Source: Alphaproteobacteria bacterium
Lineage (GTDB): Bacteria; Pseudomonadota; Alphaproteobacteria; GCA-2731375
NCBI GenBank assembly: GCA_965232515.1
Contig: CBDDPY010000002.1
Coordinates: 6,496,001 to 6,560,000 of the forward strand
Direction of reading: 5' to 3'
DNA length: 64,000 nucleotides
Below the pieces are notes generated by a model. The model was not told the origin of the DNA and searched no databases. It saw only the letters and a list, made by a program, of their open reading frames with translations. Of the stretch, positions 2,678 through 20,245 are shown piece after piece; the stretch's first letter is position 1, and each line of letters starts with the position of its first letter. Both the position numbers and the translations under genes were made by a program.

Positions 2678-2976
2678 GTCAACCCGTCCGTCTTCCCAAG
2701 CGCCTTGCCGCGTTCAGCGAGATTGGAACCACAGTTCCGTCTGGCAGAACCTTGAACGAAACCCGCCTTGCCGACCGGACGAAATCCTGATGATCGACCG
2801 TCTGCGCGGCCGATCGCCCCGCACGTCGTTGCTCGGTCATGCCCGTCGCGAAGACAGCCGTTTGGTCACTGTTCGGTCCGAACTGGGCAGTGGGTCTTGA
2901 TCTAGCCTTGCCGCCACACTAGGCGAATGCCGGAGGCCGGGCCGGTAGGCCGACTTCCAAACAAGGGGACAAGGCG

Positions 2977-4269
2977 GTGGCGACGACGGCGGCAGCCCAT
3001 CACCGGAACTTTGGCGTCCTGCTGGTTCAGGGCGTGTTCGTCGAAATCGCCCGAAACCTGGCCGGTCCACGGCTTGTCCTGCCGTTTCTCTATCTGGCGT
3101 TCGGAGCGCCGGTCTTCCTGGCTGGCGCTCTCATTCCCCTGATCCAGCTTTCACGGGTCGCGGGGCAGATCCTGTGCGCACCGTTCATCAACGCCACGCC
3201 GGTCCTCAAGTGGTACATGGTCACCGGGTCCGTGGTTATTGCTCTTGCCCTGTCGTTGGCAGGCCTGGCAGCCGACCTGACCTCTGTTCACCTCGTTGCC
3301 GTTACGTTTCTGATCGCCGTCGCCGGCGTCGGGTTCGGTCAGGCGATTAGCCGGATCGCCTTTCAGCATATGCTCGGATCCGTGATGACCGAGGACCGGC
3401 GCGGTGCACTGTTGTTTACGCAAACGGCGGTCAGCGGCGTTGTCGCGATTGCCGTTGCCTGGCTTCTGCATCGCATATTCTCAGATGTCGGATCCCTGGA
3501 CAGCCACCTGACCTTGTTGTGGGGCGGTGTTGTCGGCTATCTCGTCGCGGCCGTTCTTGCCACGGCATTGCAGGAGTCTCGAACCGGCGATGTGGAACCG
3601 CGCCAATCGAAGGCATCGTCGGCGCTTGCAGGTTACTTCGATGCGATCAGGAGCGGCACGGCGGAAACATTCCGCGAGCCGTGGTTTCGGCGCTTCGTGG
3701 TCGCACGGTTCCTGCTCGGCTCCGTTGAATTGGCGATGCCGTTCTATGCGATCCACGCCGCATCCCTCCACGCGTCGACGCAAGGAAGCCTGAGTGTCTT
3801 CGTCATTGCGGCAAGTGCAGGGCTGGTCGTTTGCGGGCCCCTATGGCAACGGCTCTCGCGCGTTTCGCTACCCGGCCTGCTGAACACGGCCTGCGCGTTT
3901 GCTGTGGTCGCAGGCGCCATCGCCATCGCCATCGAAAACGTGCCGTTGCTGCGCCACGAAATCTGCTACGGGCTCGTCTTCTTTTTGGTTTCGGCTGCAA
4001 ATCAGGGCGTTTCCAGCGCGCGCAAGATCTACCTTGCGGAGGCGGCGCCGCCAGCGCGGCGCGCATACTACATCGCCGGAGCGGAATCGGTTGTCGGCAT
4101 GATCGGCTTGCCGTTCGCATTCGCTCTGGCTGCGCTGGCCCACCTGCAGCATGTGGTCTGGCCCATTTACCTGCTGCTCGCAATGAACGCGACCGCCATG
4201 GTCTCTGCGCTGTTTCTGATGCCGACCCACCGTCATGATCACGAACGAACGGGTGTCGGCGCTCCATGA
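2977..4269 (+). CDS. MFS transporter
   Basis: 430 aa with about 12 hydrophobic segments in two halves around a polar central loop. Confidence 0.8.
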   Translation: MATTAAAHHRNFGVLLVQGVFVEIARNLAGPRLVLPFLYLAFGAPVFLAGALIPLIQLSRVAGQILCAPFINATPVLKWYMVTGSVVIALALSLAGLAADLTSVHLVAVTFLIAVAGVGFGQAISRIAFQHMLGSVMTEDRRGALLFTQTAVSGVVAIAVAWLLHRIFSDVGSLDSHLTLLWGGVVGYLVAAVLATALQESRTGDVEPRQSKASSALAGYFDAIRSGTAETFREPWFRRFVVARFLLGSVELAMPFYAIHAASLHASTQGSLSVFVIAASAGLVVCGPLWQRLSRVSLPGLLNTACAFAVVAGAIAIAIENVPLLRHEICYGLVFFLVSAANQGVSSARKIYLAEAAPPARRAYYIAGAESVVGMIGLPFAFALAALAHLQHVVWPIYLLLAMNATAMVSALFLMPTHRHDHERTGVGAP

Positions 4270-4617
4270 AATGTATGCACCCGGCGTCAGGCTCGGCCCC
4301 CGGACGTCTGCTGCTGTGAAGAACCTGTCCGGATCATCATCGCGTCCGCGATGGTTCGGTCAGATTGCACGTACAAATGCGCGCGGAAGACAATGTCATC
4401 AGCGGCGTGCGCCAGGGCGTAAGGCGGGTCGGATACGATGTCAGGATGCCGCGGTGGCCGCGTTGGCGCGGGCGCGCCCTGTGAAACCCCGCGGACAGCG
4501 CAGTCTTCTCCCGATCAGACGGCGCCGGACCGAGACTGGGTCAGGTGATCATCCTCATCGCACCGCGAGGGCCGGCATCGTTTTGGGATTGACAGCGCAA
4601 CGGCCTGGACCGCGATC

Positions 4618-4750
4618 AAGAGAGAGTAGAGCACGCTTACGAACTCTACTGCTGCAAGCGTGCTCTAGCCCCGTTGGGCGTTCGAGCCGGGGGGGCGGGG
4701 GAGGCAACCGACAAATGCTCGAACACCTTGGGGCGTTTCGGATCTCTCCT
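4618..4750 (-). ncRNA. Candidate structured small RNA
   Basis: Two adjacent stems (4627-4638/4656-4667 perfect 12 bp; 4668-4687/4717-4734) in a gap with no convincing ORF; minus strand gives a G-U pair, a CCUCCCCC loop and a pyrimidine tail; repeat box upstream at 4820-4837. Confidence 0.4.
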
Positions 4751-4819
4751 GGCTGACGGGTGAATTGCATTTCGCGCCGTCGTGATGCATCTCAATGTAT
4801 GGCGTTCCGGCACCGGTGT

Positions 4820-4837
4820 TGTTGACGAAGTTCGGAC
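4820..4837 (-). promoter_or_regulatory. Direct-repeat box GTCCGAA-cttc-GTCAACA
   Basis: 11-bp period, matches the other island boxes; TACATT hexamer begins 38 nt downstream of the box start. Confidence 0.5.
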
Positions 4838-4883
4838 AAGTTATCGGCCTCGTCAGGTCTTGACCGCATCCGCTGGTCGGCCG

Positions 4884-19492: not shown

Positions 19493-19555
19493 TTTCATCT
19501 CCATCAACTGATTGGGTGTCTGTTCCATCGGTCCATATGCTGGATACGGACGTTG

Positions 19556-19858
19556 CTAGGCGTTGACGCGGGCGCGCTTGGCTTTCGTGCGCGGTCGCGG
19601 CGCCGGCTTGTTCTCTTCCTCTCGTTTGCGATGGTGGTAGGCCACCACGTCCGACGCGCCGGTGGCATCCGCCAGGGCGAGAACCTCGTCGGCGCTCATG
19701 CCGTGCGCGGCGATCCGCGCCCGCCAGGCGGCGTCGATCTCGTCAAGCTGCTTGAGATTGGTCTCTGCCTGGGCCTTCATTGTCTCGCCGTCCGCGCGCA
19801 GCGCTTCGATTTCGGCTTCGCGCCTCGCTTTACGGGCGGCATGGTCTTCAGACGCCAT
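19556..19858 (-). CDS. Small helical protein, LcrG/tip-chaperone position
   Basis: 100 aa coiled coil with basic tail; AAGGAG RBS; first gene of the operon. Confidence 0.55.
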   Translation of the reverse strand: MASEDHAARKARREAEIEALRADGETMKAQAETNLKQLDEIDAAWRARIAAHGMSADEVLALADATGASDVVAYHHRKREEENKPAPRPRTKAKRARVNA

Positions 19859-19969
19859 GGTCGATCTCCTTCATGATGTGGTCCGGGACCGGCGGCGCGC
19901 CGCTCTGAGCTGCGTTAGCCGATCGCCCTCTGGTTTCGCCAGCAGATGTATTCGCCGCCGTTTCGTCTT

Positions 19970-19987
19970 GTCTGACGAAAACCGGAC
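19970..19987 (-). promoter_or_regulatory. Direct-repeat box GTCCGGT-tttc-GTCAGAC
   Basis: 11-bp period, upstream of the translocon operon; TACATC begins 37 nt downstream of the box start. Confidence 0.5.
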
Positions 19988-20227
19988 AAATGACCGATAC
20001 GGTGACCGGTGCGCCGCCTGCGCGATCGAATCCCCTCCGCCGCGCCGAAGTGGCTTTGGCCGTGCGGGCGGGACACCGACCAGGCCATCGCGAGCATCAG
20101 TAAGACGTGTGCATGCCCAAGCGCGTTCGCCGCAATGACGTGGGCACGGAAGGCGCGACGACGTTAGCGTCCAAGGGGATGCTGCCGGACCCGCCGCAGG
20201 TCGCCGCGCGGTCTGGTTTCGCGCCAC

Positions 20228-20245
20228 TTCGGACGGAGTTCGGAC
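20228..20245 (-). promoter_or_regulatory. Direct-repeat box GTCCGAA-ctcc-GTCCGAA
   Basis: Two exact heptamers at 11-bp period, oriented toward the translocon operon. Confidence 0.55.

Follow-up and report, generated by a model that had tools for sequence, protein, structure and literature searches.

Type III secretion system (T3SS) regulons are usually organized around a recurrent promoter box and the activator that reads it, as with the tts box and TtsI, the PIP box and HrpX, the hrp box and HrpL, ExsA, and the HilA sites, and such boxes have been the most productive route to effector discovery. Here we describe a box of this kind, GTCCG-N6-GTCCG, in a stretch of 64,000 nucleotides, hereafter the window (G000:C2:6496001-6560000), from an alphaproteobacterial genome of 7.39 Mb and 65.5% G+C, which we designate G000. 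Pfam scans place the right-hand part of a T3SS island at window positions 1-20300. The box is very likely the common promoter element of this island, and the best overall explanation is that it is probably a tandem operator resembling the pho box, situated near -35 and bound by a regulator that the island itself encodes.

In the Pho regulon of Escherichia coli, PhoB reads a pho box of at least two head-to-tail 11-bp units, each composed of a conserved 5-7-bp core and a less conserved, A/T-richer spacer, held in a fixed orientation to the promoter at the position of a -35 element, with a gap of about 10 nt to the -10. The GTCCG box shares the repeat structure and the fixed orientation and would likewise stand at the position of a -35 element, and the candidate regulator's winged helix-turn-helix (wHTH) domain is closest in sequence to the PhoB DNA-binding domain. 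The two systems differ in the core, which is GTCCG here, in the recognition-helix residues of PhoB, which are not those of the regulator, and in the putative gap to the -10, about 5 nt longer here than in the pho box. Because the regulator has no receiver domain, it would, unlike PhoB, be activated by a route other than phosphorylation.

The Salmonella island SPI-1 encodes the T3SS master activator HilA, in which an N-terminal wHTH of OmpR/ToxR type precedes a large C-terminal region; HilA binds a direct repeat near the -35 of apparatus and effector operons; the HilA box is A/T-rich. To our knowledge, HilA carries neither an NTPase nor a cyclase-like domain. The likeness of the HilA box is one of function. 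One review presents HilA as a wHTH protein contiguous with its T3SS targets (PMC7232297). ExsA and VirF (LcrF) also serve Ysc-like injectisomes with regulons of chaperone-effector operons, but they use a different DNA-binding fold, and the G000 island contains no AraC gene (none of the 31 HTH_18 matches in the genome).

AfsR and the other large Streptomyces antibiotic regulatory proteins (SARPs) share with the candidate regulator an N-terminal OmpR-type wHTH, a nucleotide-binding oligomerization domain (NOD) ATPase of the STAND class (signal transduction ATPases that have numerous domains), and a helical sensor. A section of one report describes AfsR as a side-by-side dimer on two 11-bp direct repeats at promoters with a poor -35 and places the afs box at -40 to -19 (PMC10936776), further downstream than the position we infer for the box here. 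Unlike AfsR, the regulator has no detected BTAD and carries a degenerate cyclase domain between wHTH and NOD; it also belongs to a proteobacterium and has a T3SS as its presumed target in place of antibiotic biosynthesis genes.

The tts box of rhizobial Rhc T3SSs, read by the OmpR-family wHTH of TtsI, also stands upstream of effector and apparatus operons and has been used for effector prediction. Its consensus, given in part of one paper as tcGTCAGcttntcGaaAGct... (PMC3009519), can likewise be read as a pair of 11-bp units, of which the first has a GTC(A/C)G-like core. The initial annotation of the window had remarked on this similarity, which extends to the architecture and no further. For the invariant tts core, GTCAG-N6-GnnAG, the window has a single match, at 35557 and outside the island, against 1.62 expected, and we reject the identity of the two boxes. 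TtsI possesses a receiver domain, whereas none of the 78 Response_reg matches in the genome falls within the island (C2:6453000-6517000), and the T3SS here carries Ysc-type and not Rhc markers.

The tandem GTCCG box is enriched in the island at a single spacing

The island spans 64 kb (C2:6453000-6517000, 0.87% of the genome) and begins about 42 kb upstream of the window, its remainder lying at C2:6454000-6496000. The initial annotation had proposed an operator GTCCGAA-N4-GTC with an 11-bp period. The period of 11 stands; the core is rather GTCCG-N6-GTCCG with a T/C-rich spacer, arranged as two, sometimes three, head-to-tail 11-bp repeats with a consensus of about GTCCGAAyTTCGTCCGrw. The heptamer GTCCGAA, present 839 times in the genome, is not itself enriched in the window (16 copies against 11.2 expected; 11 of 100 shuffles reach 16). 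GTCCGAA-N4-GTC occurs 25 times in the genome, seven of them in the island, and all three genomic copies of GTCCGAA-N4-GTCCGAA lie within the window. The exact dyad GTCCG-N6-GTCCG occurs 46 times, with 10 copies in the island against 0.40 expected (binomial P = 7e-12).

This enrichment was confined to one spacing. When GTCCG-N(k)-GTCCG was counted for k = 0 to 17, the island held 10 copies for k = 6 and between 0 and 2 for each of the 17 other spacers, while genome totals were alike across all k (27-82). Allowing one mismatch diluted the signal, with 28 of 1337 copies in the island at k = 6 against 8-26 island copies for the other spacers.

The same element was recovered de novo. A Gibbs sampler of width 18, applied to the 220 nt upstream of 10 Pfam-chosen CesT chaperone genes, converged on GTCCGAAnnnnGTCCGnn and located the box in six of the 10 regions, with a score of 109.3 against 91.5-98.1 in eight shuffled sets, a modest margin. 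Of the four regions missed, two belong to genes internal to operons (SycN and the chaperone that follows a 1876-aa gene), and for the chaperone starting at 2677 another weak site was picked instead of that at 2791. We also built a position weight matrix (PWM) only from 16 sites of three further genomes, G041-G043, and ran it over G000; these sites had been found by the pattern GTCCG-N6-GTC, so that the core columns depend on G000, whereas those of spacer and flanks do not. The top six matches all lie in the island, as do seven of the eight scoring at least 20 bits, 10 of 16 scoring at least 18 bits and 13 of 34 scoring at least 16 bits (P = 1e-18 for the last threshold), and 25 island positions reach at least 9 bits against 7.6 expected.

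Beyond the island, PWM matches lie mostly within coding sequence, and the two that are intergenic and correctly oriented are not effector-like. The better of these, C2:5782371 (+; 19.4 bits), lies 158 nt 5' of the gene for a 658-aa SARP-like protein with BTAD and TPR domains (L105:1529-3505), and the second, C2:947108 (-), precedes a PAS histidine kinase gene; possibly they are regulatory cross-links or chance matches. Using the box to find effectors genome-wide, as had been suggested, yields almost nothing outside the island in this genome, but in G042 it picks out a CesT-effector pair (a CesT gene and an ORF of 750 aa) behind a box on a separate contig, L103.

Boxes precede T3SS operons in a fixed orientation and at a fixed distance

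All six sites previously listed for the window are present at the coordinates given for them. Four of them point toward a downstream unit. A triple GTCCGAA of 11-bp period (repeats at 12680, 12691 and 12702; 12680..12708, +; 19.5 and 20.0 bits) lies 74-102 nt 5' of a CesT start at 12782, in front of the chaperone gene (12782-13249, +) and a 413-aa candidate effector with no Pfam match (13274-14515, +). On the minus strand, the site at 19987, GTCCGGTtttcGTCAGAC, corresponds to the box GTCCGGTTTTCGTCAGAC (19970..19987; 22.2 bits), 129 nt 5' of the first gene of a translocon operon (start 19858), and the site at 5432, GTCCGAAtctcGTCACAT, corresponds to the box GTCCGAATCTCGTCACAT (5415..5432; 18.1 bits), 126 nt 5' of a CesT start at 5306, the chaperone gene (4884-5306, -; Pfam) being followed by nothing further. 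The fourth, at 2791, ATCAGGAtttcGTCCGGT, is a weak box on the minus strand, ATCAGGATTTCGTCCGGT (2774..2791), 114 nt 5' of the CesT start at 2677; it scores 12.6 bits in a genome where 843 positions reach at least 9 bits, and its position is what speaks for it. The unit behind it comprises the chaperone gene (2195-2677, -) and a candidate effector ORF of up to 646 aa with no Pfam match (391-2331, -), whose true start is probably downstream of 2195.

The two remaining sites, both on the minus strand, depart from the earlier claim that each site faces a downstream unit. The site at 4837, GTCCGAActtcGTCAACA, corresponds to the box GTCCGAACTTCGTCAACA (4820..4837; 17.5 bits) just past a CesT stop, with a -10-like TACATT at 4799-4794. 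No ORF of at least 80 aa follows in the stretch of about 560 nt downstream (window 4270-4837; longest ORF about 45 aa), beyond which lies the 3' end of a convergent major facilitator superfamily (MFS) transporter gene; the box may be an orphan promoter or may precede a decayed effector gene, a small protein or a small RNA. The site at 20245, GTCCGAActccGTCCGAA, corresponds to the box GTCCGAACTCCGTCCGAA (20228..20245), the best PWM score in the genome at 25.3 bits; it is distal, 258 nt upstream of the 19987 box and just after a terminator-like hairpin at 20372-20348, and may be an auxiliary site. A further weak box, GTCCGGGGATGGTCCGAC (7732..7749, -; 13.4 bits), abuts the ATG of a MarC-family gene downstream of the regulator gene; its significance is uncertain, and it was left out of the count of 13 boxes given below.

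In the part of the island upstream of the window, boxes precede both apparatus and chaperone operons. Those on the plus strand stand at C2:6454333 (before CesT, then sctD), C2:6456341 (small ORFs, then sctI-J-K-L), C2:6468858, or the exact dyad at 6468825 (sctW-sycN-yscX-yscY-sctV-PP2C), C2:6475649 (CesT, then a 674-aa ORF) and C2:6478535 (CesT, then a 743-aa ORF); those on the minus strand stand at C2:6468786 (STAS, then sctN...sctU) and C2:6483508 (CesT, then a 333-aa ORF). The boxed units include the sctF/I operons. Overall, 11 of the 13 aligned G000 boxes have a same-strand gene or operon downstream, the exceptions being 4837 and 20245. At the CesT and translocon promoters, 96-129 nt separate the first G from the start codon. 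In our judgment, the box is very likely the common promoter element of the island.

A -10-like hexamer lies about 37 nt into about a third of the box-containing promoters

Ten of the 29 island boxes, which come from four genomes, carry the motif TA.A at an offset of 36-38 counted from the first G, and it occurs only four times elsewhere in the 70-nt windows; in a control set of 406 non-island GTCCG-N6-GTC dyads of G000, it occurs at an offset of 35-40 in 10 (Fisher P = 4e-8). Typical hexamers are TACATC, TAGAAA, TATAGA and TACATT. At the 19987 box, the putative element is TACATC at 19945..19950 (-), 37 nt past the first G. Two other sites carry, as the initial annotation had noted, GGAATG-NN-ATC exactly 31 nt downstream (past 12702 and past 5432). 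At the first, GGAATGCAAT (12733..12742, +) places GGAATG 31 nt past the third repeat and includes a putative -10-like TGCAAT (12737-12742); at the second, GGAATG stands at 5401-5396 (-) and a -10-like TGTGAT at 5397-5392 (-). We considered GGAAT at +31 as an extracytoplasmic function (ECF)-type element and rejected this reading, since the three GGAAT sites have, by eye, no common downstream -10.

A scan for canonical sigma-70 -35/-10 pairs gave two matches against 3.1 expected, none of them at boxes. If the hexamer is a -10, the 18-bp core spans about -49 to -32, and we lean somewhat toward a geometry in which the box overlaps or replaces the -35. Four polyA RNA-seq runs carrying the same species label yielded 0 reads on window 2400-20400, which is no test of expression or of the transcription start site (TSS).

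A wHTH-STAND protein of the island is the candidate regulator

The candidate regulator, a 773-aa protein with Trans_reg_C and AAA_16 matches, is encoded at window 7927-10248 (-). Its N-terminus begins directly with the PhoB-like wHTH (residues 1-103; Trans_reg_C E = 4e-16), which is followed by a degenerate class III cyclase fold (residues 132-297; window 9370-9860), an AAA_16/STAND NOD (residues about 317-530; AAA_16 E = 4.5e-23) and a C-terminus that is all-helical in the predicted structure. Pfam gave no TPR match in this C-terminus and no BTAD match (PF03704) in the protein.

A profile of the regulator and 11 full-coverage homologs matched best to the PhoB DNA-binding domain (PDB 3t72/1gxp, E = 1e-11), followed by CadC, SaeR, ToxR and OmpR, and residues 131-291 matched class III cyclases weakly (E = 4e-4 to 1e-3); the Pfam cyclase model gave no match in the regulator. 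An AlphaFold model from the 12-sequence alignment (mean predicted local distance difference test score, pLDDT, 78; predicted TM-score, pTM, 0.57) shows the wHTH (1-103) joined by a disordered linker to an alpha/beta domain (132-297), then a P-loop NOD that starts at 317 and the helical C-terminus. In Foldseek searches, the NOD matched CED-4, Apaf-1, Cdc6/Orc1, MalT, a plant NLR, Avs3 and a STAND-TPR protein, and the middle domain matched the cyclases Cya2, CyaB and CyaC (TM-score to target 0.63-0.68). In the alignment to a canonical paralog to which the Pfam cyclase model does match, the motifs FCDLVGST and GDG of the paralog read ECRLDRSE and ARR in the regulator. These motifs presumably hold the two metal-binding aspartates, and since both are replaced, we call the middle domain a pseudo-cyclase; possibly it is a nucleotide-sensing or dimerization module.

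Of the genome's 28 Trans_reg_C matches, just one lies inside the island, and it is that of the regulator. Judged from its sequence and its company, this wHTH-STAND protein is likely to bind the box.

Box and recognition helix recur together in other genomes

No full-length ortholog was found among 40 relatives, and none with the wHTH among 400 other genomes of the class, in which the island itself was not searched for. A protein search returned 11 homologs of full coverage, with identities of 34-77% across the first 330 residues. Metagenomes or metagenome-assembled genomes (MAGs) are the origin of all of them, with Acuticoccus sp. MNP-M23 in addition; sources given by name are Minwuiales, Hyphomicrobiales and 'Pseudomonadota', and the closest orthologs are P0002 (77% identity) and P0003 (55%). 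A search of metagenome contigs with the regulator gave one partial, wHTH-only match (L097) with no ortholog context. The single strong match within the class, in G333, proved to be a paralog of SAM-cyclase-AAA_16 architecture without the wHTH, in a genome with no CesT gene and no box cluster, and serves as a negative control.

Ortholog loci with genomic context were available on contig C13 of G041 (L017; 43% identity), on contig C43 of G042 (L018; 44%) and in G043 (L019; 34%). The first two are Ysc-like T3SS islands with CesT-effector pairs, and in the third a CesT gene lies beside the regulator gene. In G041, seven of 25 exact dyads fall on the T3SS contig (P = 4e-6, whole contig), and in G042 four of 37 fall on C43 (P = 8e-4). 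G043 is fragmentary, with 11 exact dyads on 11 contigs; one dyad lies on the contig of the regulator, about 100 nt 5' of the CesT gene. A reversed-pattern control gave no genome-wide excess.

The boxes of G041 and G042 are placed as in G000, before CesT-sctD, between the divergent STAS-sctN and sctW units, and before the translocon operon and CesT-effector pairs, and in all three further genomes the regulator gene has a divergently oriented box 110-410 nt upstream of it. At the translocon promoter, G000 and G041 agree down to a deviant second half-site, ...TTTyCGTCAGrC, and TACAT at offset 37; the G041 box, GTCCGATTTCCGTCAGGC, has a second half GTCAG as in the 19987 box. The box is conserved in these orthologous promoters together with its deviations. 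G041 also has a distal and a proximal box before a CesT operon, resembling the 20245/19987 pair. Triple 11-bp repeats occur at one CesT promoter each in G000 (12680-12760) and G041 (L099:2290-2400, -), with the secretin gene as divergent neighbor in both, which hints at a conserved high-occupancy site.

The recognition helix follows the same distribution. Its sequence, YVSDG(T/A)LSRCLSR(I/V)R, is near-identical in the four T3SS-linked orthologs, which are 55-62% identical over the first 110 residues, and V60, D62, G63, L65, S66, R67, C68, S70, R71 and R73 are invariant in the 12-sequence alignment. Four more distant wHTH-AAA_16 homologs (L020, L021, L047 and L050; 29-32% identity) fall outside the system: their helices, different at most positions, read FVSESAL(T/L)YCI.. 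or HITEATLNHAV.., their genomes have no CesT gene, and their loci have no T3SS-type box (0-1 GTCCG-N6-GTC dyads each). Recognition helix and box therefore co-occur across genomes. Taken together, the enrichment at one spacing, the de novo recovery, the fixed orientation and distance, and the recurrence in genomes with an orthologous regulator agree with the initial description of the element as a regulon box.

Alternative readers of the box

The most serious alternative holds that the box is a real T3SS operator bound by a wHTH protein encoded outside the island, such as a core-genome OmpR-family response regulator comparable to HrpG or PhoP, while the STAND protein acts elsewhere or upstream. 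The genome offers 28 Trans_reg_C and 78 receiver-domain matches as candidates, and 11-bp tandem repeats are generic for the OmpR/PhoB family. Against this, box and island recur in genomes of other families, always with an orthologous STAND-wHTH protein whose recognition helix is near-identical, and the searches of 40 relatives and 400 class genomes described above found no full-length and no wHTH-bearing ortholog, respectively. As the box travels with the island, every recipient would already need to possess a core regulator of matching specificity, and we regard an outside reader as unlikely.

An AraC/ExsA-type activator, the usual master regulator of Ysc-family T3SSs, could also contact such repeats by placing its two helix-turn-helix motifs on successive major grooves, and AraC-family genes do occur in the T3SS islands of G041 (L017:12317-13369) and G042 (L100:13147-14142). 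The G000 island, as noted, has none of the 31 HTH_18 matches, however; the nearest is a cupin-AraC gene (C2:6446097-6447038) beyond a resistance-nodulation-division (RND) efflux pump, adjoining an isochorismatase-domain gene with penicillin-binding protein/RodA cell-wall genes further out, and the best G000 matches to the G041 AraC protein are megabases away. The two helix-turn-helix motifs of an AraC protein also differ from each other, so that identical direct half-sites and triple repeats would not be expected, and we consider an AraC-type reader very improbable.

Equally slight is the chance that the repeats have no regulatory role and are relics of duplicated chaperone-effector cassettes or an effect of composition or chance: many boxes do precede paralogous CesT genes and GTCCGAA alone shows no enrichment in the window, but the upstream regions share only the 18-bp box and the -10-like hexamer, the box also precedes non-paralogous apparatus and translocon operons, its enrichment is confined to one spacing, it is kept in orthologous promoters though the regulators are only 34-44% identical, and the reversed-pattern control revealed no general composition effect.

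Several observations weigh against a pho-box-like operator near -35 read by the island regulator. The TSS, and hence the overlap with -35, depends on a weak -10-like signal in about one third of sites, and the gap from the 22-bp repeat unit to the putative -10 is about 15 nt, longer than the roughly 10 nt of the pho box. The resulting position is also far upstream of the afs box as placed in the cited section on AfsR (-40 to -19; PMC10936776). The best-scoring box, at 20245, has no -10-like element, and the PWM scan found no correctly oriented box upstream of the secretin gene or of the regulator gene. Since the sites in the relatives were found with a pattern derived from G000, the PWM test is not fully independent. 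As for the reader, 27 other Trans_reg_C proteins in the genome would in principle be able to bind repeats of this kind, an AraC-family gene is also present in the islands of G041 and G042, and the ortholog sample is small (four genomes with context) and its members, being kin, are not independent.

A model for the GTCCG regulon

We propose that the box is the cis-element common to the promoters of a Ysc-like, horizontally mobile T3SS island and drives its chaperone-effector, translocon and apparatus operons. A signal would cause the 773-aa STAND regulator to oligomerize and two or three of its wHTH domains to sit in tandem on successive 11-bp repeats; the box, at roughly -49 to -32 given a -10-like TAnAny hexamer that begins 36-38 nt past its first G, would then substitute for the absent -35 element, and the housekeeping RNA polymerase would be recruited by the protomer nearest the promoter, as happens where pho boxes or SARPs are at work. 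The proposal follows from the behavior of PhoB-type domains and of AfsR, and assigns the regulator a putative role in activation rather than repression.

The regulator may well represent a previously undescribed class of T3SS master regulator, a one-component STAND NTPase with a PhoB-like wHTH and a dead cyclase that would travel with a Ysc-like injectisome between proteobacteria known mostly from MAGs and switch the whole regulon through its own 11-bp-phased GTCCG box. Through oligomerization, a signal perceived at the pseudo-cyclase or the helical arm, either a nucleotide or a ligand from the host, would feed directly into promoter occupancy, making a two-component or AraC step unnecessary. 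In the open-access literature and bioRxiv full text, we found no description of a GTCCG box or of a wHTH/pseudo-cyclase/STAND regulator, and none linking Acuticoccus with a T3SS.

The candidate box-regulator pair is new and was derived from sequence alone, for the Ysc-like injectisome of bacteria that are mostly MAG-known and lack genetics. It would form a compact two-part system, one regulator and an 18-bp operator, and its STAND NTPase with a pseudo-cyclase offers a testable example of a virulence or symbiosis switch. The box also supplies a rule for nominating candidate effectors, namely GTCCG-N6-GTCCG, a -10-like hexamer about 37 nt on, and a CesT gene about 100 nt on; in G000, at least six CesT-linked proteins without a Pfam match (333-1876 aa) fit it. 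Should the assignment of the regulator be wrong, the box would still stand as the common promoter element of the island.

Gene content of the island and its surroundings

The left border of the island lies between the RND efflux operon and C2:6453750. The part upstream of the window has genes for SctD, I, J, K, L, N, O/P, R, S, T, U, V and W, for SycN, YscX and YscY-like proteins, for a PP2C phosphatase and for a STAS protein, besides five further CesT genes. The accessory genes found are of Ysc type (YscX, SycN, YscK, YscO-type and TyeA/HrpJ), and on these markers we group the T3SS with the Ysc-type injectisomes. All 10 CesT genes detected by Pfam sit inside the island; the window part holds three, two of which are followed by a large ORF with no Pfam match. 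A further candidate effector, of very large size, is a 1876-aa ORF with no Pfam match (L002:7663-13293; C2:6483663-6489293); a CesT chaperone gene of its own comes after it, and another boxed CesT operon diverges from it.

Within the window, the T3SS secretin gene, whose product has a lipoprotein-type signal (10298-12427, -), is divergent from the triple box. The translocon operon (14805-19858, -; Pfam) comprises a 100-aa coiled-coil ORF, a 514-aa ORF, a TPR chaperone (17377-17913), an SseC-like translocator (15849-17474) and a 328-aa ORF, with a terminator-like hairpin at 14779-14754. No known RNA family reached its gathering score in window 1-24000.

Partner-switching genes are embedded in the T3SS operons: a 756-aa PP2C gene (SpoIIE + DUF3369) directly after sctV (L001:17314-19584; C2:6473314-6475584) and a STAS gene 5' of sctN (L001:12332-12823), with further loci at L098:110-568 and at L018:2404-2880 and 17084-17425. 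G041 has an RsbW-like HATPase_c_2 kinase as well, and G042 has two STAS genes. The set is reminiscent of the Bordetella BtrU/V/W and chlamydial Rsb modules, and may control secretion or couple secretion to transcription.

Other cargo is shared or unusual. A MarC-family membrane protein gene lies in or beside the T3SS island in three genomes (window 6964-7749, L099:5566-6246 and L018:1521-2156), and an island-linked S-adenosylmethionine methyltransferase gene is also shared (C2:6492597-6493544 and L099:4719-5558). Two MFS transporter genes (window 2977-4269 and 5520-6872) are interleaved with the T3SS operons, as is an amino-acid permease gene (L001:4146-5759), unusual cargo for an injectisome island. 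Elsewhere in the assembly, contigs C3 (5516 bp, 45.8% GC) and C4 (10862 bp, 42.3% GC) lie about 20 points below the G+C content of the chromosome and may be foreign elements or assembly contamination.

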